Shown one piece after another: positions 22,383-63,070 of a DNA stretch of 64,000 nt. Positions within the stretch are counted from its first letter, which is position 1, and the number at the start of each line of letters is the position of its first letter. A program made the position numbers and the translations under genes. The notes beneath the pieces are model-generated. The model was not told the DNA's origin and searched no databases. It worked only from the letters and a program-made list of their open reading frames with translations. This stretch comes from Centroscyllium fabricii (taxonomy: Eukaryota), in contig JBNRSN020000003.1 in NCBI GenBank assembly GCA_051313645.2, positions 484,530,001 through 484,594,000 on the forward strand, given 5' to 3'.

Positions 22383-25300
22383 TGTAGCGTAACTACCCGA
22401 GAGACTCATCCGATCTCTCTAGGACCTAGAATCCACCTTACCAGAGCGGGCCCACCGCTGTTCCCCCATTGGTCAGTGAGGTCAACGGTTATGGTCCCCC
22501 ATTGGTCCATAGGGCTGTCATTCAACAGCCCCCACAGTGCTTTGTGTTTTCGCGCCGTTTTCACTCAGTTCTGCGTTGTTGTGATTGAATAAAGACTTAT
22601 TGCATTCTGCTCCGCTGCTTTCCTCCGTTTCTCAATTATTTAAGAGTGGGAAAATTAGGTTCCCCACAATTGGTGACCCCGAATGTCAGACATAGAGAAT
22701 GCTGACCCGAACGCGCGCACAGCGGCCCGCCAGACCGAACGGCCGTCGACTACAAGTCTCCCTACCTTCTGCGAACACCAAGCAGCCACTTGGTTTATAC
22801 AAATGGAGGCACCTACAATGCATTACTCAAGATGAGGACCGCTATCTCCTCGTTGTTGCAGCCCTGCCGAGCTAAGTCGCCGCCGACATGGTCGACCTGC
22901 TCCACGACCCGCCGACAGCCGACAGGTACGCTGCCGTCAAGAAGCGCTTGCTGCAGGCCCACAACCTACCGGAGGCCGTGCAGGCCCAGCAACGTCTCGA
23001 ACTCCCGGTTCTCGGGGACTCCACGCCCACACGTTTAATGAAACGGATGCTTGCCCTGCTCGGCGACCACAGGGAGTGCCCTTTGTTCAGGGCACTCTTC
23101 ATCAACCTGCTTCCACAACCGGTGCAGTCCGCATTGGCAAACTTCAAAGACCACATCTGCCTCTGCACACCTTACATGGGCGCCGCCACAAGGCCCCCAA
23201 CCCGCTCGCCGCAGCCAACGCCCCGACCTCGACCGGAGCTTTGCTACTATCACGCATGAAAGGCCCACCGCTGCCGACCGCCTTGCTCCTTCGACGGAAA
23301 ACTGGCCCAACCCAAGCCCAAGACTTCGAATCAGCAACGCCGCCAATGTCCAGCCACTGCTAACGCCATGGGCACAGCAGGGCAGTTGCTCTATATTACA
23401 GACTCTCTGTCCGGCCAACAATTCCTCTGCGACACAGGGGCCCAGCTCAGCATCTTACCAGCCATGCATGCTGATCGATGGTCCGGCCGCAGCGGCCCAC
23501 TCTTCATAGCCGTGAATGGCGTAGCTATAATTCGGTAAGTGGCGCGCTGAAATCTGGCTGGGCGATCAACGCTTTGCATGGAACTTTGTCACGGCCAACA
23601 TAGAACGTCCATTGCTGGGCGCAGATTTCCTTTGTGCCCACGGCCTGCTCGTGGACGTCCGGGGCAGACGTCTGATGGACGCATCTACTTTCGCTTCGCT
23701 TCCCTGCCAGCGAGGTGATGGTCAACCCCTCATTAGCTCCTGCTCTCCTCCTCCGGGCGACAGGTACGCACGTCTGCTGGCTGAGTTTCCGGCCATCACG
23801 CAGCTGACTTTCTCTGACAGTACCACCAAACACGGCGTCCGACATCATATCGCCACCACTGGTCCACTGGTTTTCGCCAGAGCCAGATGCCTCGATCTTT
23901 CGAAGTTGGCGGTGGCCAAGCAAGAATTCTCTGCCCTGGAGAAGTTAGGGATCATTCGGCCTTCCAACAGTCCGTGGTCGTTCCCACTCCATATCGTCCC
24001 CAACCCCAGGCCGTTGGTGCCTACCTCCTGGCGCAGGCGCATTTTTCAGTTTGTCCATGGCCTCTCACACCCTGGAATGCAGGCTTCTCAAAAGCTCATG
24101 TCCACCAAGTTCGTTTGGCCAGGCCTGCATAAAGACGTGCGCGACTGGACTAACGCCTGCCAGGACTGTCAGTGCGCCAAGGGCCATCGACATACTAAGG
24201 CCCCTTTGGAAAATTTTCCGGTGCCCGAGCGACGCTTTGATCATGTCCATGTTGACCTGGTGGGCCCATTGCCCCCATCGCAGGGTTTCACCCATCTCCT
24301 CACTGTCGTTGACCGCACCACTAGGTGGCCAGAGGTAGTATCTCTTTCTTCCACTACTGCGGCCGACATCGCTCGTGCCTTCATTTTTTCTTGGGTGGCC
24401 CGTTTCGGGGTACCATTGGACATCACTTCCGATAGGGGCCCTCAGTTCACCACCCAACTCTAGAACGCAGTTGCCTCCAGCCTAGGTATGCAAGTGCACT
24501 GCACTATGGCATACCACCCACAGTCTAATGGCATTTGCGAATGCTTCCACCGCGCCCTTAAGGCCTCACTCTGAGCTAGCCTGGTTGATGCCAATTGGCT
24601 CGACAGGCTATCTTGGGTTTTGCTTGGGTTGCGTTCTGCACCCAAGGACGACCTCGGCACTTCATCTGCCGAACTCATTTTTTGAGAGCCTCTCTGTGTT
24701 CCAGGAGAATTTTTCCCCTCCACTACCGACCCTTGGTTGGCCAGCGAGCAACTCGCTCAGCTTAACGACGCGGCGCACCGTTTTCTCCCTAAGCCCACCT
24801 CTCAGCATGGTGTCCGCTCGACTCACATGCCTACCGAGCTCTGTTGGGCTAAATTTGTCTTCATGCATCGCGACGCTCACAGAACACCCTTGCAGGCGCC
24901 ATATACTGGCCCTTTCCTGGTGCTGGAGGTTGGTGACAAAGCTTTCTTCTTGGAGGTCGGGGGTCGACAGGACTGCGTGTCTATCGACCATCTTAAGCCG
25001 GCCCAGTTTGACCCCACCTTGCAGGAACAGTCTTCCCCAGCTCCGCGCCAGGAGTCTTTCTTTGTCCCGAGCGTACCCGTGGCAGGTCCCACAGTCTTTA
25101 CGCCCTCGGGTACAGCTCCAGTTGCAGTTTCGCCCCCTGTTTCACCTCCTTTCGCGCCTGCAGCGCAGTTACCCCCCAGTCCGGTACACAGCTCTCCGGC
25201 GCCCTCTCCAGCACCAGCGACCTATTGCTCTCGCAGCGGCTGCCTCATCAAACCTCCTCGGAGGTGGACGTACTATGTGTCTGTGGATTCTGAGGGGGCG

Positions 25301-30335: not shown

Positions 30336-30980
30336 GACCCGGGAAGCGGGACTTGGAGGAAGGAGCGGAGCGGAGCCCAGCGGCAGACCCGAGGACCAGA
30401 GCCCAGCGGCAGCGGCAGCGCCCGGTGAGCGGGACTTCGGCAGCGCCCGGTGAGCGGGAGCGGGACTTGGAGCGGGAACGGGACTTGGAGCGGGAACGGG
30501 ATTTCAAAATCCCAAGAGCGAGGCCTCAAAAGCGGCAGCGGCGGCGGCGGTGAGGCCAGACCCGGGAAGCGGGACTTGGAGGAAGGAGCGGAGCGGAGCC
30601 CAGCGGCAGACCCGAGGACCAGAGCCCAGCGGCAGTGGCAGCGCCCGGTGAGCGGGACTTCGGCAGCGCCCGGTGAGCGGGAGCGGGACTTGGAGCGGGA
30701 ACGGGACTTGGAGCGGGAACGGGATTTCAAAATCCCAAGAGCGAGGCCTCAAAAGCGGCAGCGGCGGCGGCGGTGAGGCCAGACCCGGGAAGCGGGACTT
30801 GGAGGAAGGAGCGGAGCGGAGCCCAGCGGCAGACCCGAGGACCAGAGCCCAGCGGCAGCGCCCGGTGAGCGGGACTTCTGCAGCGCCCGGTGAGCGGGAC
30901 TTGGAGCGGGAGCGGGACTTCGGCCATGCCCAGGGAGCGGGACTTGGAGCGGGAACGGGACTTCAAAAGCGGCAGCAGGA
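30336..30980 (+). repeat. 223-bp tandem monomers (about 2.8 copies) with internal GCGGGA sub-repeats
   Basis: GACCCGGGAAGCGGGACTTGG restarts at 30336, 30559 and 30782; the first two units are nearly identical. Confidence 0.93.
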
Positions 30981-36700: not shown

Positions 36701-39589
36701 TCCTTGTACATGAATCACTGAAAGTTGACATGCAGGTACAGCAAACAATTAGGGAAGCAAATGGTATGTTGGCCTTTATTACAAGAGGATTTGAGTATAA
36801 GAGTAAATATGTTTTACTGCAATTATATAGGGCCCTGGTGAGACCACACCTGGAGTGTTATGTACAGTTTTGGTCTCCTTACCTAAGGAAGGATATACTT
36901 GCCATAGCGGGAGTGCAACGAAGGTTCCCCAGACTGGTCCTGGGATGGGGGGATTGCCATTGAGGAGTTGACTAGTCCTATATCCTCTAGAGTTTAGAAG
37001 AATGAGAGGTGATTGTGACCGAAATAACAACCTCGTGGACGAGTAGTTAGGAAGAGAAACAATGCGGCTTTTATTAACTAAATAGTGGGACACGCACCAG
37101 CTAGTCGACTGTCCCCAGGTATGGCCGGGGGATGGGAGACGGCCATTTATATACCCCCTCCTGGGAGGGAGGAGTCGCGGGCGGAGCCAGCCTGGGCATG
37201 TCCCGGTAATCGTATAACAGGTTATATACAACATGGCATTAGGTACGATTACATAGATACAACGGGGTGATTATATACAATAGGAAACAGTGGGAAACAG
37301 TGGTTTATCACATTCACCCCTTTTTTAAAACAAAAGTCCGGCGGGGTCAATGCAAAAGTTCTTTTATTTATTTATTTTAATCATAAATTAAGTCGCTCCG
37401 GCGGCCTGGTGATCCTTGCCGAGCGTCGCACCGCTGGTGGTGTCCGCGGTCGCGGAGTGACCGGCCGAGTCGGTTGTAGCGATGGTGCTGATGCAGGTTG
37501 GCGAGCGGTGATCGTCGGTTGGTTTCTGGGTGGTGGTGCCCTTATACCGACAGTAGGAGGCGTGCTCTCTCCCTCGTCGTCTGACTCTAGGGGGCGTGCA
37601 CTGTGGAGCCATGCTGGAGGCCATGCCGTGCTGATCGCAGGTGCCGGGTGGACGTACTGGGGTACAGGGTCCTCGTGCCGGGGAGCGTACCTTGGCGCCG
37701 GTGGCTGGGGTGGCGTGGCTGGCCGCGATGGCCCGGATGGGGTGGCAGGCCGTCTTGGGTGCGCGGGCTGCTGGGCGGGGCGTCTTGGGTGCGCGGTCTG
37801 CTGGGCGGGCCTGGGTTTGGGGATCCCTGCTGGCGCCAGGTCCTTGATGGACACTGAGTCCTCCCTCCCGTCGGGGAACGCCACGTAGGCGTACTGGGGA
37901 TTGGCGTGCAGGAGGTGGACCCGTTCGACCAGGGGATCTGCCTTGTAGCCCCTCACGTGCTTCCGTAGTAGGACCGGTCCCGGGGATAGCAGCCACGATG
38001 GTAGCGAGGTCCCGGAAGCCGACTTCCTGGGGAAGGCAAAAAGTCGTTCGTGAGGGGTGGCATTAGTGGCCGTACACAGGAGGGACCGGATAGAGTGGAG
38101 CGCTTCAGGGAGGACGTCCTGCCATCGGGAGACTGGGAGGCTTTTAGACCGTAGGGCTAACAGGATGGCCTTCCAGACAGTGGCGTTCTCCCTCTCTACC
38201 TGCCCGTTCCCCGGGGGTTGTAGCTGGTAGTTCTACTAGTCGCGATGCCTTTGGCTAGCAGAAACTGACGCAGCTCGTCACTCATAAAGGATGCTCCCCG
38301 GTCACTATGAATATAGTTGGGATAGCCGAACAGGGAGAAGATGCTGTGGAGTGCTTTGATAACGGTGGCTGAGGTCATGTCCGGGCAGGGGATGGCAAAG
38401 GGGAAGCGGGAGTACTCATCGATTACATTAAGGAAGTACACGTTCCTGTTGGAGGAGTGAAGGGGCCCTTTGAAATCGACGCTGAGTCGTTCAAAGGGGC
38501 GAGTGGCCTTAATCAAGTGCGCCCGGTTTGGCCGGTAGAAGTGCGGCTTGCACTCCGCGCAGTCCTGGCAGTTGCTGGTCAGCGTCTTGACCTCCTCGAT
38601 GGAGTAGGGGAGGTTGCGGGACTTCACGAAGTGAACCAACCTGGTGACCCCCGGGTGGCAGAGGTCATTGTGTAAGGTTTGGAGGCGGTCTGTCTGTGCG
38701 CTGGCACAGGTACCGCGGGATAGGGCTTCTGGGGGATCGTTAAATTTCCCGAGCCGGTACAAGATATCATAGTTGAATGCGGAGAGTTCAATTCTCCACC
38801 TTAATATCTTGTCGTTCTTTATTTTACCCCGCTCTTTGTTGTTGAACATAAAAGCGACTGATCGTTGGTCAGTCAGCAGGGTAAAACGCTTGCCGGCCAG
38901 GTAGTGCTTCCAGTGACGCACTGCTTCAACGATGGCTTGGGCCTCCTTCTCGACTGAGGAGTGGCGGGTCTCGGGGCCCTGGAGGGTACGTGAGAATAAG
39001 GCCACGGGTCTGCCCGCCTGGTTAAGGGTGGCGGCCAGGGCAAAGTCCGATGCATCGCTCTCTACTTGAAATGGGACAGACTCGTCCACAGCGTGCATCG
39101 TGGCTTTTGCGATGTCATTCTTAATGCCGCAGAACGCCGAGCTGGCTTCTGCGGACAGGGGAAAAGAGGTAGATTTAAGCAGTGGGCGAGCTTTGTCCGC
39201 GTAATTGGGGACCCACTGGGCGTAATACGCAAAGAAACCCAAGCACCGTTTAAGGGCCTTGGGGGAGTGGGGGAGGGGAAGCTCCATGAGGGGGCGCATG
39301 CGGTCCGGGTCGGGACCGATGACCCCATTCTCCACAACACTGCCGAGGATGGCTAGGCGGGTGGTACTGAACACGCACTTGTGGTGATATTGGCTATAAC
39401 ACCAACTATGTGTATGTACATGCCTTAGGGCGTGTCTACTCTTGCCCAGCCAGACTTGGGAGACCTGTACCTGGAGAACCTCGGGTAGGCCACGCCTCTG
39501 ACCCTGGGGGTATAAAGGTCAGCACTCGTGGGTTCTGACCTCCTCTCTACTGTACTGTACTAACGATACCTGTGATCCCTTACGCTTGT

Positions 39590-39664
39590 TCTAAGTTTAT
39601 TAAAGCCTATGTTAACTCGCTCTCAGACTCGAGTAATTGATGGTATCAATTTAATAAACTTAGA
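39590..39664 (+). promoter_or_regulatory. Self-complementary PBS pair of element D
   Basis: 39590-39604 TCTAAGTTTATTAAA is the exact complement of 39650-39664 TTTAATAAACTTAGA. Confidence 0.85.
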
Positions 39665-39683
39665 TCGTCGCTAAAATCCAAAA

Positions 39684-42600
39684 ATGGACCGAATTCTGGC
39701 TGTCCCGATCTTGGAAATTGATGCGACTGCTCCCGATGCCGAACGCCGGTATAAACACTGGGAACAGCAGCTGAGGAGCTATATCGACGAAGTGAAAGAG
39801 ACTGCTTCAACTGATCAGCAGAAGAGCCGAATTCTACACTGCAGAATCAGTGCTGACCATTACCACCTCATCGAAGGGGAGTCGGATTACGAACAGGCCA
39901 TGAAGAAACTGAAAGAACAATTTGTGCCAGCAGCCAACGCTGTTCACTCAAGGCATGTGTTGACTCAGAGAGCCCAGAGCGCCGAGGAACCGGGCGCCAA
40001 ATTCGTGAAAGAAATTTGTGCGCTGACCCGAGATTGCGCCCCTGGCCCCCTGACGGCGGACGAACACTACAACGAACTGGCACTGGACGCTCTGGTAAGA
40101 GGGGTATACTCCCCATATATCAGGGCCCGACTGCTAGAACGGGATGAGCTAACGTTAAAAGAAGCAGCCTCCCTGATTGTAAATCTGGACAATGCAGATC
40201 GGAGATCCACCACGTATGGCCAACCAAGCGCGCCTACGTGGGCATCCCCAGCCCCAACTCCTACCCCAGCGCTAACGGCAGCGGCAGGAAGAAGCAGGCC
40301 TGAAACCAACCAAAAGTGTTTCTTTTGCGGAAAAGCTAGGCACTCTAGACTGCGCTGCCCAGCCAAAGATGCTACGTGCTCGGGGTGTGGAAAGAAGGGG
40401 CACTATGCCGCGATGTGCCGCGCAACAGGGCAGAAAAAGAAGGCAGCCCCCATCTGCAGCGGAGCGAGAGCGGCACCACGTTCCTACTACACGGAGGTAG
40501 ATGACCGCGAGGGAGCACCACGAGGCGGCGGCCATCTCGAGGCCACAGCTAGGAGGAGCGGCCATCTTAGTTCATCACCACGAGGCAGCGGCCATTTTGA
40601 GAGTCTTCGAATTGACTCCGACCCAGAATATTCGGATGAAAACGACTCATCAACCATGCTGGCGTCCATCACTTTGGACCAATCAAAACCCCATGAACTG
40701 CAGAAATCAATGATGGACGTCCAGGTAAACGGACAAAACTGTAACTGTTTATTTGATACGGGTAGTACTGATAGTTTTATTTCCCCCGAGACTGCTGACC
40801 GTCTTCGCCTGTCGATTCGCCCCTGTTTAAAACGCATCGCCTTGGCGGCGGACTCAGAATCGGCGCAGGCCGTGGGGTGTTGCGAAGTATCACTTGTAGT
40901 TCGCGGGGTAAAATACTGTAATTTTAAACTGTTTGTGTTACCCCACTTGTGCGCCCCAGTGTTATTGGGGCTCGATTTCCAGAGCCACCTGCAGTGTGTC
41001 ACCCTGGTATACGGCGGCCCTCTCCCACCCCTGACGGTCGAGTCGAGTACCCCCCGTGAGCGCCCGCTTTGTGGGCTCACCACTTTACGGATCTCACCCC
41101 CGAAACTGTTCGCGAACCTCACGCCGGACTGCGCACCGATTGCCTCAAAGAGCAGGCGGTATAGTGCTGCAGACAGGGCGTTTATTGGCACCGAGGTGAA
41201 GCGACTGTTGGCAGAGGGGGTGATTGAAGCCAGCCGCAGCCCCTGGAGGGCCCAAGTAGTAGTGGTAAAGACGGGGGAGAAGAACAGGATGGTGGTCGAC
41301 TACAGTCAGACCATAAACAGGTTTACACTCCTCGATGCGTACCCCCTTCCCCGGATCTCGGACATGGTAAATGAAATTGCCCAATACAAAGTCTATTCGA
41401 CTATAGACCTTAAAGCGGCATATCACCAGGTCCCAATCCCCAGAGAGGAGCGCCCCTACACCGCTTTCGAAGCGGATGGTCGCCTCTACCAGTTCCTTCG
41501 GGTTCCCTTCGGAGTAACGAACGGAGTGTCCGTCTTCCAGAGGGAAATGGATAGAATGGTAGACGAACACGGGCTCAGGGCCACCTTTCCCTATCTAGAT
41601 AATGTCACTATCTGCGGCCACTCGGACGAGGACCACGACGAGAACCTCGCTAAATTTTTGAAAACAGCCAAATCCCTGAATTTGACCTACAACAAAGAAA
41701 AATGTGTTTTCCGCACCAGACGCCTAGCTATTTTGGGCTGTGTGGTGGAAAACGGGTTAATCGGCCCGGACCCTGACCGAATGCGCCCGCTGATTGAGTA
41801 TCCCCTTCCCAAGACACCCAAAGCTCTAAAGCGGTGCATGGGGCTGTTCGCGTATTACGCGCAGTGGGTCCCGAAATTTGCGGACAAAGCCCGGCCTCTG
41901 ATGCGGGCCACTGTTTTTCCCCTGTCGGCAGCGGCACTAACGGCTTTTAAGCAACTTAAAGCCGATATAGTAAAAGCGGCAATGTCCGCCATTGATGAGG
42001 ACGTGCCTTTCCAAGTGGAGAGCGACGCGTCCGACTTCGCCCTGGCGGCGACCCTGAACCAAGCAGGCAGACCCGTTGCCTTCTTTTCCCGTACCCTCTC
42101 GGGCTCGGAAGCACGGCATTCCTCCGTGGAAAAAGAGGCCCAAGCCATTATCGAAGCGGTGCGCCACTGGAGACACTACCTGGCCGGTAGAAAATTTACC
42201 CTGCTCACCGATCAGAGGTCGGTAGCATTTATGTTTAGTAACACACAGCGGGGAAAAATTAAGAACGATAAGATCTTGAGGTGGAGGATCGAATTGTCCA
42301 CCTTTAATTATGATATTTTGTACAGGCCAGGTAGACTCAACGAGCCGTCTGATGCACTGTCCCGCGGGACCTGCGCCAGCGTGCAGGCGGGCAGACTGCA
42401 GGCTCTGCACAATAACCTCTGCCACCCGGGGGTCACCCGCTTCTATCATTTTATCAAAGCCCGCAATCTACCGTATAGTATTGCGGAGGTTAGGGAGATA
42501 GTCAGGGATTGTCCGGTCTGTGCGGAATGCAAGCCGCAGTTTTTCCGACCGGACAAGGCACACCTGATTAAGTCCTCTCGGCCCTTCGAACGCCTTAGTA

Positions 42601-43499
42601 TTGATTTTAAGGGCCCACTCCCGTCCACCGACAGGAATGTCTACTTCCTCACAGTCGTGGACGAATACTCCCGTTTCCCATTTGCGATACCCTGCACTGA
42701 TATGACTGCTGCCACAGTCATCAACGCCCTCGCCCCGATATTCGCAATATTCGGCTTCCCCTCATTCATACACTCTGACCGGGGGTCTGCCTTTATGAGC
42801 GACGAACTGCGCCAGTTCCTACTCGCGAGAGGAATCTCGTCAAGCAGGACAACGAGCTACAACCCCCGGGGCAATGGCCAAGTAGAGCGCGAGAATGGCA
42901 CTGTCTGGAAGGCGGTCCGCCTGGCACTCAGGTCCAGGGGCCTTCCAGCCTCACGCTGGCAGGCGGTTCTCTCGGACGCTCTACACGCCGTACGGTCGCT
43001 TCTTTGTACAGCGACCAACGCAACGCCGCACGAACGGATGTTTTCCTTCCCCAGGAAGTCCGTCTCGGGGATGTCGCTGCCGTCGTGGCTAGCCTCCCCG
43101 GGCCCAGTACTGTTGCGGCGCCATGTACGGCACTATAAGACCGACCCACTGGTCGACAGGGTACTCCTCCTCCATGCTAACCCGCAGTACGCCTATGTGG
43201 AGTTCCCTGATGGCAGGAAGGACACAGTCTCTATTAAAGACCTGGCGCCCGCAGGCGCCCCTGCGACCACAACTCCGCCCCCACCCCCCTTCCTCTCGTC
43301 GTGGGCCCAGCCGGCACCTACCACATCGCAGCCCGTGCCCAGCCCCCCACCGACCCATACCGCCGTATTCCCTGGTGACGCACTGCTAACGTATATTCCT
43401 TCGGCTTCCCCAGGTACCGATACCGAACGGCAGGACCAGCAGCTCAGACGGTCGTCGAGGGTGCGACGCCAGCCAGACCGCCTGGTCTGCTCAATGTGA
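39684..43499 (+). CDS. Intact Gypsy Gag-Pol polyprotein (Gag-PR-RT-RH-IN), 1271 aa
   Basis: Two knuckles, LFDTGS, YLDN, ESDASD, H..H..CPVC, DDE integrase; no stops. Confidence 0.95.
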   Translation: MDRILAVPILEIDATAPDAERRYKHWEQQLRSYIDEVKETASTDQQKSRILHCRISADHYHLIEGESDYEQAMKKLKEQFVPAANAVHSRHVLTQRAQSAEEPGAKFVKEICALTRDCAPGPLTADEHYNELALDALVRGVYSPYIRARLLERDELTLKEAASLIVNLDNADRRSTTYGQPSAPTWASPAPTPTPALTAAAGRSRPETNQKCFFCGKARHSRLRCPAKDATCSGCGKKGHYAAMCRATGQKKKAAPICSGARAAPRSYYTEVDDREGAPRGGGHLEATARRSGHLSSSPRGSGHFESLRIDSDPEYSDENDSSTMLASITLDQSKPHELQKSMMDVQVNGQNCNCLFDTGSTDSFISPETADRLRLSIRPCLKRIALAADSESAQAVGCCEVSLVVRGVKYCNFKLFVLPHLCAPVLLGLDFQSHLQCVTLVYGGPLPPLTVESSTPRERPLCGLTTLRISPPKLFANLTPDCAPIASKSRRYSAADRAFIGTEVKRLLAEGVIEASRSPWRAQVVVVKTGEKNRMVVDYSQTINRFTLLDAYPLPRISDMVNEIAQYKVYSTIDLKAAYHQVPIPREERPYTAFEADGRLYQFLRVPFGVTNGVSVFQREMDRMVDEHGLRATFPYLDNVTICGHSDEDHDENLAKFLKTAKSLNLTYNKEKCVFRTRRLAILGCVVENGLIGPDPDRMRPLIEYPLPKTPKALKRCMGLFAYYAQWVPKFADKARPLMRATVFPLSAAALTAFKQLKADIVKAAMSAIDEDVPFQVESDASDFALAATLNQAGRPVAFFSRTLSGSEARHSSVEKEAQAIIEAVRHWRHYLAGRKFTLLTDQRSVAFMFSNTQRGKIKNDKILRWRIELSTFNYDILYRPGRLNEPSDALSRGTCASVQAGRLQALHNNLCHPGVTRFYHFIKARNLPYSIAEVREIVRDCPVCAECKPQFFRPDKAHLIKSSRPFERLSIDFKGPLPSTDRNVYFLTVVDEYSRFPFAIPCTDMTAATVINALAPIFAIFGFPSFIHSDRGSAFMSDELRQFLLARGISSSRTTSYNPRGNGQVERENGTVWKAVRLALRSRGLPASRWQAVLSDALHAVRSLLCTATNATPHERMFSFPRKSVSGMSLPSWLASPGPVLLRRHVRHYKTDPLVDRVLLLHANPQYAYVEFPDGRKDTVSIKDLAPAGAPATTTPPPPPFLSSWAQPAPTTSQPVPSPPPTHTAVFPGDALLTYIPSASPGTDTERQDQQLRRSSRVRRQPDRLVCSM

Positions 43500-45609
43500 C
43501 CTGGCATGAACAGGCGGCCACAATTTTTTGGAACACCTTTGTAAATACTGTCTGTACATATGTTAGGTATTGTTTGTGCCCCCTCAGCACTTTTCTGTGT
43601 TATAGGTCAAATTAAGTGTTTTGGCGGTGTGGAGAAATTTCTGGAGGTTGGCGTCATGGTCCTGCTGATCGTGGCCGCAGATGGTCACGTTATCGAGGTA
43701 CGGGAAAGTGGCTCGCAGCCCGTACTGATCGACCATTCGGTCCATCTCCCTTTAGAAGACCGAGACCCCATTCGTGACGCCAAACAGGACCCTAAGGAAG
43801 TGATAGTGGCGACCGTCAGCCTCGAGGGCAGTATAGAGACGGTCCTCTGGGCGAATGGGAAGCTGGTGATAAGCGGACTTCAGGTCTATGGTGGAAAACA
43901 CCCTGAACTGCGCGATCTGGTTCACCTGTTCGGCTATCCGGGGAAGGGGGTAAGAGTTTAACAGGGTGAACCGGTTTATGGTCTGGCTGTAGTCAACGAC
44001 CATCCGGTTCTTCGCTCCGGTTTTGACCACCACTACCTGCGCCCTCCAGGGGCTATTACTGGCCTCGATAACCCCCTCCTTCAGGAGGCGCTGCACCTCG
44101 GACTTAATAAAGTCCATGTCCCCAGCACTGTAGCGCCTACTCTTGGTGGTGACTGGCTTGCAGTCTGGGGTGAGGTTGGCAAAGAGCGAGGGAGGGGCGA
44201 CCTTAAGGGTGGAGAGGCCACAGGTAGCGCGCCGGGGGTGCTGTGCTGAGCGCCGGTTGCTGACCGTGAGCGAGGGAAGGGGCCCACCGTACGCCATGGT
44301 AACACTCTGGAGGTGGCACTGAAAGTCTAGACCCAATAGTAATGGGGCGCAGAGCTGCGGCAGCACGAAAAAGCTAAAATTATCAAAGTGCACGCCCTGT
44401 ACAGTTAGGGCCACTGCGCAACGCCCGGAGACGTCCGCAGATTCTGATTTAGAAGCCATCGAAATTCTTTGGCTCGCAGGCATAACCTTAAGGGAGAGGC
44501 GCTCTACTGTCTCAGGATGAATAAAACTCACCGTGCTCCCACTGTCGAAAAGGCACTCCACGTCTTGTCCGTTCACTTGCACCGGCATCATTGATTTCCC
44601 AAGCGATTGGGTCTTGTTCTGGTCAAGAGTTACTGATGCTAAAATTGGATCCGCCGGTTCCTCTTGATCCGCAGAGTAGTCCTCCGGGGCCGGTCCCCAT
44701 GATGGCTGCCGCCATGTGGTGTACTGCGGAGGGGGTGGCTGGGTCCAATATGGCGACTGCTGCCACGCGGGGTGCTGAGTGGGGGATGGTTGAGTCCAAT
44801 ATGGCTGCTCCCATGTTCCACACGCGGCGCTGTCCGGTTTCGGTTTAGGGGCTGATGTGGTCGCCTTACAGACTTTCGCGTAATGTCCTTTTTTTCCACA
44901 TTTAGAACAGGCCGCTTCTCTTGCCGGGCAGCTACGTCTCGGATGCTGAGACTGCCTGCAGAAGTAACATTTAGCCGTCTTTGCGTGAGCGGCTGCGATC
45001 ATTTCTTCCGCCGGCCGTTGCACCGGCGTTGTCCAAGATGGTGGGGCTGGGCCCGCATAGTTGCCGGAATAAGATGAGAGGTTTAACGAGGCCACGTCCA
45101 GCACGTGTCCCAGATCCGTAGTTGCCTGCAGGTCAAGGCCGTTCTGCTCTAACAGCCTCTGTCTTATATAGTCCGACCTGAGGCCTGTCACATATGCGTC
45201 TCTAATGAGACTGTCCGCATGGATCGGGGCCGTTAGCGCTCTGCAGTCACAGGCCCGTGAAAGCACCCTCAGCGCTCTTAAAAATTCCACGCTGGACTCA
45301 CCGGGTTGCTGCTTCCTGGTGGCTAGGAGATGTCTGGCGTGGACGATATTGGGTGCCCGGTTGTACTCCGCCTTGAGGATCCTGATAGCATCCAAGTACG
45401 ATGATGCGTCCACGATCATGGAGTACACCTGAGGGCCCACCCGGGCGTTGAGGAGCCGTCGTTTGTCCTCTTCGGTCACGACGACCGCAGCGTTCGCTCT
45501 CAGGTATGCATCGAAAACACTGTACCAGTGTGTAAAAGTGTTTGATGCACCTGGTGTTCGGGGGTCCAGTTCAAACGTCGCTGGCTTGAGCATGGCTTCC
45601 ATCTTCAAA

Positions 45610-45695
45610 ATTTAGTTAATAAAATTGTGACCGAAATAACGACCTCGTGGACGAGTAGTTAGGAAGAGAAACAATGCGGCTTTTATTAACTAAAT
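45610..45695 (-). promoter_or_regulatory. Self-complementary PBS pair of element C
   Basis: Plus-strand 45610-45624 ATTTAGTTAATAAAA and 45681-45695 TTTTATTAACTAAAT form a perfect 15-bp inverted repeat. Confidence 0.85.
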
Positions 45696-47388
45696 AGTGG
45701 GACACGCACCAGCTAGTCGACTGTCCCCAGGTATGGCCGGGGGATGGGAGATGGCCATTTATATACCCCCTCCTGGGAGGGAGGAGTCGCGGGTGGAGCC
45801 AGCCTGGGCATGTCCCGGTAATCGTATAACAGGTTATATACAACATGGCATTAGGTACGATTACATAGATACAACGGGGTGATTATATACAATAGGAAAC
45901 AGTGGGAAACAGTGGTTTATCACAGTGATCTCATTGAAACATACAAAATTCTTACAGGACTTAACAGGGTAGATGCAGGGAGGATGTTTCCCCTGGTTGG
46001 GGAGTATAGAACCAGGGGTCACAGTCTCAGAATAAGGGGTCGGCCATTTAGGACTGAGATGAGGAGAAATTTCTTCACTCAGGCTGTGGCGGCTGAGTTG
46101 TTGATTATATTCAAGACAGAGATTGTTAGATTTTTGAATATTAAAGGATTCAATGGATATAGGGGATAGCGCAGGAAAGTGGAGATGAGGTAGAAGATCA
46201 GCCATAATCTTATTGAATGGCGGAGCAGGCTTGAAGGGCCAAATGGCCTATTCCTGCTCCTAATTCTTAAATTCTTATGTTCTTATGCAGCAGGCCACAG
46301 GCAAGGATGAGAACCCCTGCTCCTCTTGGCCCCATGAAAATAAATATAAAACATTTCCTTTAGAGATCTTTTTGGAGCGACCTCCATCGGTTCCTTTAAA
46401 GACCCGTTGGTAACGCCACTCAATGCCTGGTACTCATCGTCAGAAAGAATGCCACACCACGCTCCACCCATTTGTACCTGAAAATGACAGTGTGAATTTT
46501 TATATTTCAGCAGTCATGGAGGGATTTGAAAACAAGGTTGAGAATTTTAAAATCGAGTCTTTTTATCTGGTTTCATGTTGCGTTATATGACAAAGGTCAT
46601 TTTCTGAGGTCAAGCGCCCAGGGCAGAGCCTTGCCCACTGGGATTGCCCATTGGAAATTCAGGCACAGGCCGTGAATGATTTTCCAATAAGGCCTCCCAG
46701 CTGTGAAGCGCCCTGCCAGAAGCAAGAAGTCGGCAAAGTACCCCTTATACCAGCAGCGTTGGTGCAAGGAAAAAACACTTTACAATGATGCTACAGTGCT
46801 TGTGTAAAGGCACTCCTAGCAACACTACAGAAAATGACAGTCAAAAATGTATTTTTTGTTTTAAATGAACCGATGTCAAACACTCATTGCGCACTTATTT
46901 TCAGTGGCCAAAGACAAAGTTTCATTAAACTGTATCCAGTGAAGGTATTTCAGCTTGATACTCTGGGTTAAATCATTGTCATTTACTTCTGGCAATGTCC
47001 AAATTATCTTCATAGAATCATAGGGGGCAAATTTTGCTATCAACCATTTGGGGGTGCTAATATCGGCTGGGCGCAAGATTTAGCCCGGCGCAAATTATCG
47101 CCAGCGACCGGAAAATTCGTCTCCAGTGTTCCTGGAGGTGATTGGAGTGCTAAATCAGGCACTACACACTTCTCTTAGCGCGCTAACGTCATGGAACGAT
47201 GCGCGATATCAGAACACTACTCAAGCTCAGGCGCTGTCAATTACAAGTACTACCTCAGAGCGCTACTCAAGACTGGCGCCATCCAGTTCTCAAAGGGGAG
47301 GTTCAATCATGCTGCGCAGTCGCACCCTGATCATTGCAGCATTTGACCTGGGCCTGCAAGGAGGTATAAATCTTCGACAACGATTATC

Positions 47389-47631: not shown

Positions 47632-48799
47632 GTGAGTAGATGCTTGAAATACCTCTACATCCCATCTCAACCTCACTCTGTGCACAGATGGTATAAAGTG
47701 CCAAATCCCCAACACTCACCCAACAACTATGCCCATCTACTAAAAGTCACATCCACATCTCACACCTTGTAGACATTAATGGATATTCAACTATGGTAGG
47801 CAAATCTGCCAAACACATGGCTGCACACTCACTCACACGCTGTCCTTTTTCATGCAGGCCAAGCTTTCACATAACAGGAGGGAGCAACAATGCATGGGAG
47901 GAGGTCAGGCAGAGTTGCAGCCCCTCACACAGCTGGAGGAATGAGTCAAAGATTAATTGCAAGCCATGTCGTGGCGCTGTGGCAGTCAGAGAGGTTGACT
48001 CCCTTGGGGGCAGCAACGGTATGTTCATCATCTCCCTCTCCTCTCTCATACCACTTCCCCCTCACAACACCAGTCTTTCCTACTTTCCATCTGATTATAC
48101 TGTCTTAATTCCTTGCTCCCTTCCTGTGCCCCTGCCCTCACGTTAAAGTCACTCTTGTACCTTCCTGCTTTCAGATAGTGAACCACCATCTGACCAGCCT
48201 GCCCTCAGCCACCCAGTGGCAGTGATGTGGAGTGGAGGGGGAACACCTGAAGGGATAATTACTAACCCTAGCCCTTTTTGGGCTACCCCACATCAGGCGT
48301 ATTCCCCAGACATTCACTTTCAACTAAAGTAAGCAATAGCTGAATTATATAAGACGCTTAATTGGGTCTAAAGGTCCAGGCTATCTCTCTCTAAAGGAAA
48401 GCAATGACAAAAAGATGTTACCATCCTCCAGATAGTACTTTTAATAAGTTTAACTAGTCTGTAACCTTCCGGATATTATGAGGGACCGGAAACGCCCCAG
48501 AATTCTGCAATTCCTTCCAAAAGCATGTACAGAAATGGAGTTTGTGAGTTTAATGCAGAAATACTACTTGAGACAATTCTAATAATATACAGATTTATTT
48601 AAGAGCTGACATACAGTTAACAGCTGATGAGTCAATCACAACTTTAACAGTTCAAAATACAAATAGCTTACATTTCTTATTCTCAGAGATCCTTATTCTC
48701 AAATCATAACTTCATACATTTTTACATTTCTATTATTCTTAATCCAGAATATCCACCAAAATCAAATTAAAAGTACCTTTTTGATCCACGAGACTCAAT

Positions 48800-49701
48800 G
48801 GGGGGGATTTTCACAAAGGTGTGGGAAGCTGGTGGGGATTGGTTAGGGCAGGTTTCTGGCCCGCCCACCCAAGGACCTGGGAGACCCGCATGATTTTGCC
48901 TTAATTGGCCATTTAAATCCCCATCAGTCAGCGCCGTTTTTATTACACACTTCTCAGTCAGGAAGCGTGGGGCATCCTTGCAGATTCTGAATGACCGGGC
49001 AGGCTTTTGATTGACAGGCCTGAAGAGTTGTAGTAGCTCAGAAACCACTAAGCCTGACTGACAGTTCTGAAGTGGTTGCTTTGTTTCAATGTTGACAGAG
49101 GATTGTGATGTCACAATCCAATGCAAACATTGAAACCACAAATCTAACAATTCAAGTGGACTGAATGTTTGTTGGTGGTTTCAGTGGAATGTAAACAGAA
49201 ACTGATCCCCTGGATGATTGACAGCTTGCCTCTCAGGCACAGCTCGCAGTGCGATGTCTGTGAATGGCTGGCATTTAAAGGTAAGTGATTTCTATTTTTG
49301 GGGCTCTGAAGTTGATCACCCTTGGGTGCCAGCTGCACCTCCAGCATGGTGGAGGCTAGCAAGCTACTGTGTGGCTACTGTGCCCATGCATTGAAGGTTG
49401 CAGTCACCCAGCCAATTGGGTGCCCACCAGCTTTCAACGGCGGGGTTCCCACTAGGCGGGTTTTGGTGGGAAGAGGGCGAAAATAGCTGAGGGCCCTTAA
49501 AATAGGATTACCCGGGCAATTTAGGGCCCTCAACAAGCTCATTGAGCATCCCCGCAGGCAGGAAATATTCAGGGCGGGAAAACGCACCCGAGGAAACTGG
49601 CAAATCGGCGGGGATCCGTCGGGTTGGGTTCCCGCCTGCCGAATTTGCGATTTTACCACCCCACCAGAAACCCGCACTCAGGGACCCTGGAAAATCGCCC
49701 C
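48800..49701. mobile_element. Harbinger-like MITE in the ERV 3' LTR
   Basis: TIRs GGGGGGATTTTC / GAAAATCGCCCC; absent from the other LTR. Confidence 0.82.
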
Positions 49702-49895
49702 AAAGAGTTAAAAATGCACAGAGCATACCTCTGAAGTTAAGAATCACCTTCCCTTTCCAGCAACTTCTGACTTTCCATCTGAAAAGATCTACTATTATAC
49801 CTTTTTTAGTGGTTTATTCTTTGACGTTTTCTGCTGATGTAAGTTATCTTTGTTGAATTATTTTCTATACTTACTGCCAATTCAACTGTTGCAAG

Positions 49896-52800
49896 TGTGG
49901 CGGCACACTAAGACTGACGAATCCGTCTCGAGAGCTGCGGGGCATAGCCCCGCCCATCGGGTGAGGTGATGACGTCACCACCATCCCTCGGCGTGATGAG
50001 GTCACTAAAGCGGGCCTTTTAAATAAGCTCGCTCCTCGTGTTTCACTCTCTTCCTTCCTTACTGTAATGTATTAAACAGTGTTTTTCTGTCTCTCTGGCT
50101 CCCGCGTGGTTCTTGGGTCCTGCAAGCGCTACACTGGTGACACCGACTTGGAACGACTTCCAAGGAGAAAAAGCAGCTACAGGACCAATGACCAAGCAGC
50201 CTCAGGCCACTTTAAAAGTTAAACATGACTACAAGGAACCAGGCTTCTCGAACCCAAGGACTTGGCCAGAACTTCGGACACAGACTTACACTACCGGAGT
50301 TCTGGGAGCAGCGCCCAGCGGCCTGGTTTATGTGCATCGAAACCAGCTGCCGCACACACGGCGTCCAGGGGGATGACCGCTATGACTTGGTCTTTTCGGC
50401 CCTACCGCAATCGACGATTGATCGGATGTGGTCGAAGCTACAGCGTGTGCCCACAGCAGGCAGGTATGAGTTCCTTAACGCCGCGCTGCTAAAAAAATGT
50501 ACCCCCTCCCAATTTGAGCGCGACTGCCAGCTCCTTAACCTCCCCGAACTCGGGGACGCAGACCCATCGGACCTTTGGTGTCAGATGCAAGCGCTCACCG
50601 CAGATCCCGCCTCCCTGTTCCGCACCGTTTTCCTCCTCAAACTACCCCGCTCCATCAGACCGGCCCTGGCGGCCCTCTGCCACCGGAACGGGGACGAGCT
50701 AGCCGAGGAAGCCGACAGGCTCATGGTGGCCGAGCGCACCCGCTCCACCATGTGCGACCCTAATGCCGCATCCATTGAGCGCAACCACTCACCCCCCAGG
50801 TCCAACCCAACGCCTGAACCCAGGCCCCCGTGCCCACCCAGACAACCGCGTCCATCAAGCACCGGCTGGTGCTACTACCACACGCGGTTCGATAATAAAG
50901 CGCACCGCTGCGTACAGCCCTGCGCATTTAAGCCACGGCCCACACCAGCCCCCACTATGTCTGTAGGACACACAGGAGCACTGCTCTTTGTCACAGACAG
51001 CGGCACAGGCCTCCGGTTCCTCTGCGACACAGGCGCACAGCACAGCATCGTGCCAGCCTCCACAGCAGAAGCCAAACAAGGCACCCGGGGCCCGCCACTC
51101 GCAGCGGCCAACGGCTCCAATATAAAAATGTACGGCACCCGCAAGCTCACTATTAAGCTCGCTGGCCACACGTATCACTGGGACTTTGTCACAGCCCAGG
51201 TCACTTCTCCCCTCCTCGGGGCAGATTTCCTCTGCACCCACGGCCTGCTGGTCGACATGACCCGGCACCGCCTGGTCGACATCAATAACATGTCGACCAT
51301 CCCATGCTCCACAGGGCCCGCACTCCTGGCCCACGCGGCGGCACAATGCCGCTCCTGGAACTCTGACGCATACGGCACGCTCCTCGCAGAGTTCCCCACC
51401 CTTACCAACCCCACGTTCACCGCCCGCCGGGCCAAACACGGGGTAGAACATTTTATTACCACCACTGGCCCTCCCGTGCATGCCCACGCCCGCAGGCTGG
51501 ACCCGGCCAAACTGGAGATCGCGCGCACCGAGTTCCGCACCATGGAACAACTCGGCATAATCCGCCGCTCCAACAGCCCCTGGGCCTCTCCCCTCCACAT
51601 CGCCCCCAAGCCGGGCGGGGGTTGGCGCCCCTGCGGCGACTACCGCCGCCTAAACAACGCCACTACCCCGGATAGGTACCCCGTACCCCACATCCAGGAT
51701 TTCTCCGCCAGACTAGCAGGCTGCACGATCTTCTCTAAGATCGACCTGGTGCGTGGCTACCACCAGGTTTCGGTGCACCCGGCGGACATCGCCAAAACTG
51801 CCGTCATCACCCCCTTCGGACTCTTCGTGTTCCTTAGGATGCCCTTCGGCCTTAAAAATGCGGCCCAAGCCTTCCAGCGCCTCCTGGACTCAGTCATACG
51901 GGACTTGAAGTTCATTTTCGTCTACTTGGACGACATCCTCGTGGCCAGCACCTCCCCCCAGGAACACCTCCTGCACCTCAGGACCCTGTTCCAGCGCCTG
52001 GTGGAACACGGCCTTATATTAAGCCCCTCAAAATGCAAATTCGGCCTCGAGACCATAGACTTCCTCGGCCACCGCATTTCCCAAACCGGGGCCATACCCC
52101 TGCCCACCAAGGTGCAGGCACTTCAGGAATTCCCCCGCCCGCACTCCATTAAGGGGCTGCAGGAATTCCTGGGGATGGTTAATTTTTATAACCGCTTTAT
52201 CCCAGGAGCAGCCGCTCTCATGGCCCCCCTATACCAGGCCACACGCGGGCAGTCTGGCAAAACTGCGGTTGAGTGGACGGCCGATGCCGCCACCGCCTTC
52301 ACCGCAACCAAAACCGCCCTGGCCAACGCCACCCTCCTAGCCCACCCCAGGCCCAACGCCAGAGTGGCCCTCACCACTGACGCCTCCGACCACGCTGTCG
52401 GGGCCGTCTTTGAACAGTGGACCGGCAACTCTTGGCAGCCCCTGGCCTTTTTCAGCCGGCAACTTCGGCCCCCAGAGGTCAAGTACAGCGCCTTCGACAG
52501 GGAGCTCCTCGCTCTCTACCTCGCAGTGCGCCATTTTCGCTTGCTCTTGGAGGGCCGTCCCTTCACAGCCTTCGTCGACCACAAACCACTCACCTTCGCT
52601 ATGGCTAAGGTCGCCGAACCCTGGTCGGCCAGGCAGCAGCGCCAGCTTGCAGCTGTGTCGGAGTTCACTACCGACATTCAGCACATCTCCGGCCGCGACA
52701 ACGTGGTTGCTGACTGCCTCTCACGCTCCGCAATTAACGCCGCCCAAATGGCGGTCGATTACGCCAAGCTGGCAGCAGACCAGCTGGCTGACCCAGACCT

Positions 52801-54319
52801 GCTCGACCCAGCAGCAAACCTCCCTGGCCTACACCTGGCCAAAATCGCACATAGCCCCGCTGCCACAGTCGTCTGCTGCAACGTTTTCCTACCGCAGCCC
52901 AGACCCGTCGTCCCCCACGCATGGAGGCGACACATCTTCGAGACCCACTATGGCCTGTCCCACCCCGGCACCCGCGCATCCATTAAGCTAATTTTGGCCC
53001 GTATCGTGTGGCGCGGCCTGCGCAAAGACATCCGCGCCTGGACCAACTCCTGCATTGCCTGCCAGCACTCTAAAGTGCACAAGCACATCAGGGCACCGCT
53101 GGAAACCTTCACAGTGCCGGCCAGACGCTTCGACCACGTCCACATCGACCTCGTCGGGCCACTACCGCCATCCCGGGGCCACACACACGTCATGACCATG
53201 GTCGACCGCAACACTCGCTGGCCAGAAGCAGTCCCCCTCGCTGCCACCGGCACCACGGACTTGGCCAGGGCGTTCATCGCCACTTGGGTCGCCCGTTTCG
53301 GCGTGCCCACCGACATCACGTCAGACAGAGGACCCCAGTTTACGTCAGCACTATGGGCGGCCATCGCCCGCGACCTCGGGGTAACCTTACATCGAACCAC
53401 CGCATACCACCCACAATCTAACGGGCTCTGCGAACGGTTCCACCACTCTATGAAAGCATCCCTGCGGGCCAGCCTCAAAGACGCGTCATGGATCGACCGT
53501 CTCCCGTGGGTACTCCTCGGGCTGCGCTCGGCAGTCAAAGAGGACCTAAACGCCTCGGCAGCAGAACTCGTCTACGGCCAAACTTTAACAGTGCCGGGCG
53601 AATTCCTCGCCGAGCCAAACGCTCCCTGGTCGGCCGACCAGTTCTTAAAAGACTTTGCCAACCCGGCACGAGCGTTCAAACCCGTACCAGTGGCCCGGCA
53701 TGGAGAGCCGGCGGCACGTGTACCGGACGGCATTAAAAACGCCAAGTACGTGTTCGTCCGGCACGACGCCCATCGCTCGCCACTGCAACCAACCTACGAC
53801 GGTCCCTACAGAGTGCTTCGGGCGGGAACTAAAGCTTTCCAATTGCAGCTGGGCAACAGAACAGAAACTGTCTCTATAGACCGGCTAAAACCGGCACACG
53901 TGATAGCGGGCGACGCAACAGTCCCCGCCCAACCACCTCAACGCAGACGCCCTCCCTCACCAACACCCGCCCACACTCCACCGCAGAACAAGGAGCAACG
54001 CACGACACGTGCCGGCCGTGCCTTACGGCCACCACAACACTACACATAGACTCTTTTATCCTCTCAGACGGATTCTGGGGGGGAGCTGTGTGGCGGCACA
54101 CTAAGACTGACGAATCCGCCTCGAGAGCTGCGGGGCATAGCCCCGCCCATCGGATGACGTGATGACGTCACCACCATCCCTTGGCGTGATGAGGTCACTA
54201 AAGCGGGCCTTTTAAATAAGCTCGCTCCTTGTGTTTCACTCTCTTCCTTCCTTACTGTAATGTATTAAACAAGTGTTTTTCTGTCTCCCGCGTGGTTCTT
54301 GGGTCCTGCAAGCGCTACA
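49896..54319 (+). mobile_element. Gypsy element G (CsRn1/Kabuki-like), full length
   Basis: LTRs 49896-50133 and 54089-54319, 4-bp TSD CAAG, PBS TGGTGACACCGAC (tRNA-Trp-like), G-rich PPT. Confidence 0.96.
50225..54049 (+). CDS. Intact Gag-Pol polyprotein, 1274 aa
   Basis: CHCC Gag motif [40 protein letters not shown] integrase and GPY module. Confidence 0.95.
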
Positions 54320-55304
54320 CAAGCATAATTATGTCTCTACTTTTAGGTGTTCCAAAAACCTACCATAAAAGACAATATAACAGTCGTATTTATTTGATTC
54401 CATTCTTATCGAAGGACTTCCATTCAATTCTAAAATCACTTAGCTATTTGGAAGCAGATGTTGTGACTCCTATGTGTTCCATTTTCAATACAAAAGCCAT
54501 GTAATTGCTTGGTGCCATCTATTGAAGTTATATTTTCAAAGTGTTCTGTTTGTACCTTTTACAACATGTAAATCAAAAACACTTCAACTAGCATGTTTTG
54601 TTTTCCCAGCCATCTTAGTTGGTTATATTACTGAATTATGTTTCCATTCTTTCATTTGCCATTACTTTCATCAAAGGCACATGGTTTTTTAATAATCTGT
54701 GTTTCTGTTCGAAGTGTCAGTTTTTAACACTTTACTTGGGCATTACTTTTGTGTTGATTCCAAACTGCAGACATTCTGGAAGCTGCAACTTGCTGTTTCA
54801 ATAGGACCATTGTCTCAGTATTAACTATCAATTCCTATTTCAAAAGCTTGTGTGGTGTTTACAGCTTGTGTTAACAACTGATCTTATCTCAAATGCATGT
54901 ATTCTGTTTGCAGCCTGTGTCACCGAGGCTTTCCAGACTTTTAAACCCAGTATGTCATGTATTAATAATATCAGAAATCTGTTCATAGGATGGTGTATTT
55001 CTTGGAATATGGCCTTTTCCTTTAGACCCCTTTCTTGACCAAAAGATGAGCTCATAACATCAGGGCAGAGTTTGGTTAATGATACTAATAAGGTTACAAT
55101 AGCATATGAAGTTCACGAGATCCACAATCATGTGCGACATGAAAATTCCTTTGGAGTCATCCTAGGCAATGTTTTGTCTTATTTTAAATTGAACACAATT
55201 TAAAAGGATGATAAGTACATAGTCATGCAATTAGCGAAACAACATGTACTTAGAATGTCCAATCGGCAAATGTACATACCATAGAGGTGAGTTATTCATA
55301 CGAG

Positions 55305-61605: not shown

Positions 61606-61623
61606 CACACATGTTGGGTGCCA
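61606..61623 (-). promoter_or_regulatory. ERV primer-binding site, tRNA-Lys1,2 type
   Basis: Minus strand TGGCACCCAACATGTGTG versus canonical TGGCGCCCAACGTGGGGC; the first two differences are CpG decay; lies 2 nt from the LTR. Confidence 0.85.
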
Positions 61624-61625
61624 AC

Positions 61626-63070
61626 TGAAGCAATAATTACTAGTCCTAGACCTTTTTGGGCTTCCCCAGATCAGGCATATTCCCCAGGTGTTCACCTTCA
61701 ACTAAAGTTAGAGATAGCTGAATTCTATAAGATGCTTAATTGGGTCTAAAGGTCCAGGCTATCTCTCTCCAAAGGAAAGGAATGACATAATGATGTTACT
61801 GTCCTCCAGATAGCACTTTTAATAAGTTTATCTAGACTGTAATCTTCCGGATATTATGAGGGTCTGGAACCCCCCCCCCAGAATTCTGCAACTCCTTACA
61901 AAAGAGTGTACAGAAATTGTGTTTGCGCGTTTAATACAGAAATACTACTTGAGACAATTCTAAAAATATATAGATTTTTAAGAGCTGATATATAGTTAAC
62001 AGCTGATGAGTCAATTGCAACTTTAACAGTTCAAAATACAAATCGTTTACATTTCTTATTTTCAGCGATCCTTTTTCTCAAATCTTAACTTTGTATATTT
62101 TTACATTTCAATTATTCTAAATCCAGAATATCCACAAAAATCAAATTAAACGTACATTTTTGATCCCCAAAACAGAAAGAGTGAAACACTTAGAGCATGC
62201 CTCTGAAGTTGAGAAGCACTTGCCCTTTCCAGTGACTTCTGACTTTCCATCTGAAAAGCACTATTTTAATACTTTTTTAGTGGTTTATTCTTTGAAGTTT
62301 TCTGCTGATGTAAGCTAATTATCTTTCGTCATCTTTGTTGAATTATTTTCGATACTTACTGCCAATTCAACTGTTGCATGCATAATTATGTCTCTACCTT
62401 TAGGTGTTCCAAAAACGAATCATAAAAACAATATGACAGTGGTATTTATTTGATGCCATTCTTATGAAAGGACTTCCATTAAATTATAAAATCAATTAGC
62501 TGTTTGGAAGCAGATGTTGTGACTCCTGTGTGTTCCATTTTCAATACAAAAGCCATGTGATTGCTTGGTGCCATCTATTGAAGTCATATATTCAAAGTGT
62601 TCTCTTTGCACCTTTTACAACATGTAAATCAAAAACACTTCAAAAGGATCTTTGTTTTCCTAGCCATCTTAGTTGGTTATATTACTGACTTAAGTTTCCT
62701 GTCTTTCATTTGATGTTACTTTTATCAAAGGCACATGGTTTTTTAATATTCTGTGTTTCTATTTGAAGTGTCAGTTTTTAATATTTTACTTGGCATTGCT
62801 ATTTTGTTGGTTCCAAACTGCAGACATTCTAGAAGCTGCAACTTGCTGTTTCAATAGGACAATTGTCCCAGTGTTAACAATCAATTCCTATTTCAAAAGC
62901 TTGTGTGGTGTTTATAGCTTAACAACTGATCTTATCTTAAAAGGTGTGTTCTGATTGCAGCCTGTGTCGCCGAGGCTTTCCAGAGTTTTAAACCCAGTAT
63001 GTTATGTATTAATATCAGAAATCTGTTCATAGGATGATATATTTCTTGTAATATGGCTTTTTCCTTTACA
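61626..63070 (-). repeat. ERV 5' LTR (about 1445 bp)
   Basis: TG..CA termini; direct repeat of 48248-55026 once that copy's insertions are removed. Confidence 0.92.

Follow-up and report, generated by a model that had tools for sequence, protein, structure and literature searches.

A candidate self-priming helix that ends at a putative poly(A) signal in a Ty3/gypsy retrotransposon lineage

Introduction

To our knowledge, self-priming of reverse transcription has been worked out mainly in Tf1-like chromoviruses, and we know of little work on LTR retrotransposons, as distinct from retroviruses, that asks how their transcripts escape cleavage in the 5' LTR. In Tf1, the transcript's first 11 bases pair with the primer-binding site (PBS), RNase H cuts after them and the primer is freed (PMC7175516; similarly PMC4600332 and PMC5341516). 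In these elements (Tf1, Tf2 and Tj1, within the Tf1/sushi group of Ty3/gypsy chromoviruses), a stretch of the LTR that complements the PBS takes the place of the tRNA, and the helix closes a loop that contains U5. An operational test for self-priming asks for LTR complementarity of at least 10 bp that starts 0–5 bp after the 5' LTR (PMC6317226). Self-priming is predicted on the same sequence criterion for plant TAR (Houba/Osr-1) copia elements and for Tcn1, which differ from the elements described here in lineage and hosts, and for which the available text of that article mentions no overlap with a poly(A) signal.

Retroviruses are described as solving the problem of polyadenylation in the 5' LTR in three ways, namely by placing the signal in U3, by suppression through U1 at a splice donor, or by the use of weak sites (PMC3694450). 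For the locus studied here, the original prediction drew an analogy with structural occlusion in HIV-1. The likeness is sound as far as an AAUAAA hidden by pairing is concerned, and in the HIV-1 LDI conformer the partner, DIS, also lies downstream of the 5' R only (PMC3432602). It breaks down in that the HIV-1 poly(A) hairpin belongs to R, so that both RNA ends carry it, in a balance that permits use of the 3' copy (PMC3432602), whereas the partner found here lies outside the LTR and is the candidate PBS; moreover, the 5' specificity of HIV-1 is ascribed to U1 at the splice donor together with U3 enhancers (PMC3694450), and HIV-1 is primed by tRNA.

Results and discussion

Four related elements in a repeat-rich window

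The window, by which we mean the whole 64-kb stretch of DNA analysed, is rich in repeats and holds at least seven gypsy-type elements or fragments, along with LINE ORFs that we take to be CR1-like. Four of the elements are related to one another: A (LTRs at 6327–6613 and 10795–11081, plus strand), B (11387–11669 and 15574–15856, plus strand), D (45924–45626 and 37312–37014, minus strand) and E, which sits inside the D pol gene and has a 269-bp 5' LTR of the TG...CA type (39380–39648, plus strand). Two TG...CA LTRs, a polypurine tract (PPT) and a target duplication are present in A and D; B has both LTRs and a PPT, but two of its five target-site bases differ. The uninterrupted ORF of E (39684–43499, plus strand) follows the Ty3/gypsy order gag-PR-RT-RNaseH-IN. 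Over its full length it matches eight Pfam families, with PR, RT, RNaseH and IN in that order and no chromodomain among the eight, and its best relative of solved structure is Ty3 RT (E-value 3.9e-45). The right end of E (43500–43591, plus strand) consists of a short 3' UTR that terminates at an internal CA (43586), 87 nt past the stop codon, followed by the 5-bp target duplication that bounds the element on both sides. There is no second copy of the E LTR in the window and no PPT in E; the element may have integrated through a cryptic end or lost these parts later in a precise deletion, or the assembly may be wrong here.

Two unrelated gypsy elements with TGG-type PBSs served as controls: C (5' LTR at 22383–22690, plus strand; PBS at LTR end +3) and F (5' LTR at 49896–50150, plus strand; PBS at LTR end +2). 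As a whole (49896–54320), F has an intact 1277-aa gypsy ORF, both LTRs and a 4-bp target duplication, and it is inserted into another repeat (48244–55030) of which a copy lies at 61622–63074.

A helix between the LTR and the sequence just after it

In E, positions 39590–39604 are the exact reverse complement of 39650–39664, which gives a stem of 15 bp around a loop of 45 nt. The LTR arm (39590–39604, plus strand) is the putative self-primer, its 3' end being the predicted priming end, and flush with that end lies an ATTAAA hexamer (39599–39604), the putative poly(A) signal. The enclosed loop (39605–39649) contains a putative cleavage region, U5, the CA of the LTR end and one unpaired spacer base (39649). 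The partner tract (39650–39664) occupies the PBS position at LTR end +2 without a TGG, and carries a canonical AATAAA of its own (39653–39658) that is buried in the same helix as the LTR hexamer. Counterparts are found in A (6548–6627, plus strand; arm 6548–6560 with AATAAG, tract 6615–6627, 13 pairs including one G-U), B (11606–11684, plus strand; 14 bp, AATAAA) and D (45610–45695, minus strand; 15 bp, AATAAA).

Only seven perfect stems of at least 11 bp (loop 3–80 nt) exist in the 64 kb, and four of them, including the three longest, are the LTR-leader junctions of A, B, D and E. When the 141-nt region of each element was subjected to 500 dinucleotide shuffles, none of the shuffles reached the observed stem length for any of A, B, D or E, compared with 499/500 for C and 155/500 for F, and a chance origin of the stems is therefore rejected. 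A search of 39300–39800 against Rfam returned no match at E-values up to 1. The partner had been noted to exist only downstream of the 5' LTR. Across each of A, B, D and E and the 300 nt that follow it on the 3' side, every 10-nt match to the arm's complement indeed lies just after the 5' LTR; E, the element at the coordinates first cited, has no 3' LTR, so the asymmetry between 5' and 3' ends is visible in A, B and D only.

The helix in distant relatives

In a scan of prokaryotic genome contigs, 24 stretches were matched, five of which encode relatives of these elements (L001–L005). L001–L004 are eukaryotic LTR retrotransposon contigs inside four bacterial MAGs, probably through host contamination. 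RT identity to E is 65% for L001, 63% for L002 and 46% for L003; these three are circularly permuted contigs with a single LTR (circular or collapsed) in which PPT, LTR, leader and gag follow one another consecutively, and with one LTR each they cannot show a 5'/3' asymmetry. Together with A, B, D and E they make up a set of seven junctions. The two remaining relatives were left out, L004 because the sole LTR on its contig is a 3' one, which has ATTAAA and lacks a tract, and L005 because its contig ends 153 nt into the match. Matching stems of 13–15 bp are present at all seven visible junctions, across 46–82% RT identity. L002 (~243–248) and L003 (~3686–3691) have an additional AATAAA close to the first bases of U3, and its use at the 3' LTR would remove R. 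In L004, long tandem arrays interrupt the RT region (3722–5275) and follow the 3' LTR (7208–10196), whose end sequence recurs in the array.

A tree of the 16 sequences assembled in this analysis unites the duplex-bearing elements in a single group with support of 100/99 that excludes F, G and P0006, subject to a long-branch warning, and within it A, B, D and E form one clade. Since the seven junctions share ancestry and the four in the window belong to one clade, they do not amount to seven independent events. RT identity between the duplex elements and other gypsy types in the window is 26–29%. Their Gag double zinc knuckle has what we take to be a Mag-like appearance. The Mag lineage and other metazoan gypsy clades (A/B/C, MolGy, Cigr-1, Saci2) share with them a compact single-ORF gag-pol and TG...CA LTRs with AATAAA (PMC3601003). 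Motif searches of the supplements of two papers gave no match, and comparison with the ESM Atlas returned generic retrotransposon clusters only.

Register and pairing point to self-priming

At all seven junctions exactly one unpaired base separates the LTR CA from the tract, so that the tract starts at LTR end +2, the position of the TGG-type PBS of control F (that of control C being at +3); within 5 nt of the LTR end, TGG occurs at none of the seven and in both controls. Pairing length is 13–15 and the loop is 31–56 nt throughout. That the paired arm always contains the hexamer, as first noted (AATAAA, ATTAAA, or AATAAG in A), holds for the window elements (ATTAAA in E, AATAAA in B and D, AATAAG in A) and proves general across the set: the arm ends 0 or 1 base after the hexamer in 7/7 (three AATAAA, two ATTAAA, one AGTAAA and one AATAAG).

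Counted over the seven junctions with the LTR end as anchor, the first 13 pairs provide 91 cells, of which 72 are unchanged, 18 compensatory, one one-sided and none broken. When an arm is set against the tracts of other elements, only 6–11 of 13 positions pair, the exception being B and D, which share the first 13. G-U pairs make up 1/99 of the LTR-tract helix and 20/173 of other locally predicted pairs (Fisher p = 0.0014, a value that overstates the depletion because the cells are related and not independent). Changes are less frequent on the hexamer side, with 6 in the 49 cells of pairs 1–7 and 13 in the 42 cells of pairs 8–13. The sole G-U pair is that of A, where both LTRs carry AATAAG (6555–6560 and 11023–11028) and the tract still matches AATAAA, a state consistent with a change that both LTRs received by copying during the last round of replication.

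We consider it likely that the tract is the PBS of a tRNA-independent, self-priming Ty3/gypsy lineage, and regard this as its likeliest primary function. By the operational test for self-priming, all seven junctions have 13–15 pairs starting 1 nt past the LTR (criterion of PMC6317226). On the model of Tf1, the RNase H of the element would cut the RNA just 3' of the arm, and the 3' end of the arm would prime minus-strand synthesis; the short cDNA would then jump to the RNA's 3' end by way of the sequence that separates the arm end from the poly(A) site. Plus-strand synthesis, which in retroviral logic copies the primer into the PBS, would finally copy it back into the tract and keep the pairing perfect. 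A cut at the arm end followed by transfer through that sequence can work only with a poly(A) site downstream of the arm, a need that would tie the signal to the neighbourhood of the arm without forcing the hexamer inside it. Primer copying alone would yield perfect Watson-Crick covariation without wobble, and the covariation therefore cannot count as separate evidence that a mask is under selection.

Priming would predict a fixed +2 register, no tRNA-type PBS and near-perfect Watson-Crick pairing, all of which are seen, and a mask alone would need none of them. A helix that serves solely as a mask, or as a translation or packaging switch, with priming left to an unrecognised tRNA fragment or another site, would leave the invariant register, the absence of another PBS and the near absence of G-U pairs unexplained; seven tracts that vary with their own arms could hardly all match fixed host tRNAs. 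Such a function has a parallel in the HIV-1 long-distance conformer, which pairs the poly(A) region with downstream sequence present at the 5' end only (PMC3432602), and the helix, which ends 4–20 nt short of the first ATG (the ATG being at LTR end +19 to +36), could affect scanning or packaging; we nevertheless regard this reading as very improbable. A search of the window for tRNA genes against which fragment priming could be judged found none. Counting against the self-priming model, the inner hairpin predicted in the U5-containing loop of all seven junctions, the counterpart sought for the U5-IR stem-loop of the Tf1/sushi group, is not consistently stable (z from +1.3 to -3.4 against shuffles, below -2 in three of the seven, and -0.21 in E).

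Where the primer would begin and which copy would prime

The lineage in the window would work in the manner of Tf1-type self-priming, judging from its sequence, although we do not class it as a member of Tf1/sushi, whose elements carry a chromodomain at the integrase C-terminus that has no Pfam match in the E ORF. The Tf1 primer is the transcript's first 11 bases, whereas here the candidate primer is 13–15 nt long, probably internal to R, and has a poly(A)-type hexamer at its 3' end. In E, a TATA-like motif lies at 39511–39516 (plus strand), 79 nt ahead of the arm, with an assumed start site ~30 nt downstream of it; across A, B, D and E the motif stands 68–79 nt before the arm, and in L003 50 nt. 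With the motif at 68–79 nt, the primer may not be the capped 5' end, unlike that of Tf1. In A, B and D the interval from the assumed start site to the arm has a predicted hairpin (6510–6540, 11560–11600 and, on the minus strand, 45698–45730), which could limit the length of primer copied or mimic the body of a tRNA.

Stricter adherence to Tf1 would have transcription start at or just before the arm, with the 13–15-nt arm as the whole primer; the hexamer would then lie no more than ~15 nt from the cap and be cut off with the primer, so that masking would hardly matter. The helix stops sharply at 13–15 bp at all seven junctions, as if the 5' end of the primer set the length copied; two relatives have LTRs of 121 bp, no TATA-like motif was found upstream of the arm in L001 or L002, and both Tf1 and Tj1 are described as priming with the transcript 5' end. 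Set against this are the four elements of the window, in which the TATA-like motif is at 68–79 nt with none at ~30 nt, and the predicted hairpins of A, B and D, which would fall between start and arm. On balance we think a start at the arm unlikely, albeit a reading to be taken seriously.

The primer might also come from another copy of the arm, supplied by the 3' R of a genomic RNA that is circularised or dimeric, or by a short 5' transcript, trimmed or cleaved back as far as the hexamer. Between the 5' and 3' arms of A, B and D there are 0 differences, the 3' arm is predicted to be open in B and D, and the arm:tract duplex in isolation is predicted at -9.9 to -19.4 kcal/mol; the local 5' arm, however, is only 31–56 nt away and should occupy the tract first. 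The suggestion that a short transcript ending at the hexamer could prime in trans does not survive as first framed, as such an RNA is not a normal cleavage product: the cut lies downstream of the signal (by 20 nt in foamy virus; PMC3694450) and a tail is added, so that priming in trans needs an extra trimming step. We rate a primer from another copy as improbable.

Predicted accessibility of the 5' and 3' hexamers

Because the arm includes the hexamer, the helix would also bury the signal's 5' copy and leave its 3' copy open, and masking specific to the 5' end is thus a predicted physical consequence of the helix that fits its geometry. At all seven junctions the predicted cost of opening the hexamer is 5.3–10.3 kcal/mol with the tract versus 0.6–2.7 kcal/mol without it. 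Folded from the assumed start sites of A, B, D and E, the 5' hexamers cost 7.1–8.6 kcal/mol to open and have a mean unpaired probability of 0.00–0.02. At the 3' end, opening is predicted to cost 0.4–0.8 kcal/mol in B and 0.3–1.1 kcal/mol in D, with unpaired probabilities of 0.60–0.84 in these two, and 2.6–5.5 kcal/mol in A, where the hexamer is partly closed (0.25–0.33). When the whole 5' LTR of A was folded, including the untranscribed U3, the opening cost was only 4.8 kcal/mol. The 5' hexamers of the controls are unmasked (1.5–2.4 kcal/mol in C and 1.8–1.9 kcal/mol in F). The claim that one helix masks the 5' hexamer and frees the 3' one is accordingly borne out by prediction as regards burial in the 5' context and the open 3' copies of B and D, while the contrast is weak in A.

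The order of transcription also bears on such a mask, for the hexamer is exposed until 50–70 nt past it have been made, and the helix then closes. At usual elongation rates, 50–70 nt correspond to a few seconds. According to the title of Chao 1999, the cleavage machinery takes ~10 s to assemble; that study reportedly used a downstream inverted copy to block processing. No strong U1 site was found near the seven junctions, the best candidates having 5–6/9 matches, and suppression of the U1 type is not favoured (the best sites in C and F have 7/9 and 5/9). No upstream signal that would end the RNA at the arm was found: the 35 nt preceding the hexamer in each of A, B, D and E hold none of 13 poly(A) variants.

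These predictions raise the possibility of a dual role, in which the priming helix is also a selected, 5'-specific block to promoter-proximal polyadenylation, such that only RNAs that fold it escape early cleavage; this is compatible with self-priming. Priming would allow the hexamer to lie in the 31–56-nt loop, yet it is inside the arm at its 3' end in 7/7, and the pairs on its side of the helix change less. AATAAA, ATTAAA and AGTAAA rank as common poly(A) signal variants, and six of the seven hexamers are one of these three. The difference in opening cost between the two ends in B and D, closure of the helix within a time shorter than that reported for assembly of the cleavage machinery, and the lack of a strong U1 site point in the same direction.

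Several observations pull the other way. Descent, together with two overlapping constraints, would keep the overlap without selection for masking and explains it equally well, and the tRNA-type elements C and F face the same problem of a 5' hexamer and do without a mask. Proximity to the cap can suffice to suppress a 5' poly(A) site. A has a weak 5'/3' contrast and keeps its helix despite a signal, AATAAG, that is ~98% less efficient than AATAAA (PMC3647115); the tract of E adds a new AATAAA at the 5' end only; the hexamer is exposed until the 50–70 nt have been transcribed; and weak sites can suffice (PMC3694450). We therefore hold a selected dual role to be possible but lean against it, and we place in the same doubtful range, on its own terms, the claim that masking measurably protects full-length RNA. 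Of the anti-polyadenylation switch originally proposed, the predicted burial at the 5' end and the hexamer at the 3' end of the arm in all seven junctions are retained; as the main function it gives way to priming, which is indicated by the +2 register, the Watson-Crick pairing and the lack of any tRNA-type PBS, and C and F are unmasked.

The most inclusive version of this idea is more tentative still. A single PBS helix would silence the 5' signal co-transcriptionally and then, cut at the hexamer end, prime reverse transcription; self-primer and poly(A) signal would be fused in a widespread non-chromovirus gypsy lineage, and primer copying would keep mask and signal matched. If the hexamer lies in R, these elements face the same problem as retroviruses, and a mask formed by the PBS is none of the three solutions listed in the available text of PMC3694450; if true, the proposal would add a fourth, and with it a natural cis-antisense block to polyadenylation.

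Relation to described elements

Self-priming may already be on record for animal gypsy families, as Repbase entries are said to propose it for some of them. In the literature covered, to which most subscription journals and Repbase Reports do not belong, we found no report of an animal gypsy self-primer that overlaps a poly(A) signal. If its primer is internal, as it appears, and ends at the poly(A) signal, this separate gypsy lineage of animals would broaden the self-priming mechanism, and the arm-tract helix offers a simple annotation signature for gypsy elements without a tRNA PBS. Masking as a by-product would leave the self-priming reading intact, while a start at the arm, as in Tf1, would make the question of masking almost irrelevant. 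With a helix of only 75 nt whose partner is at the 5' end only, cleavage in the 5' LTR becomes a question that can be tested with a small reporter.

Other features of the elements and the window

The PPT ends in GAA before the TG of the LTR in A, B, D and L001–L004. A C-rich stretch 15–30 nt upstream of the PPT can pair with it in A, B and D (10747–10794, 15537–15573 and 37313–37360, respectively). A carries a local duplication of the end of its integrase region, directly ahead of the 3' UTR (10588–10690; repeat of ~50 nt). Elsewhere in the window, a 26-nt tandem array occupies 5139–5323, and a 223-nt duplication with shorter internal repeats (30336–30968) runs into a LINE ORF.
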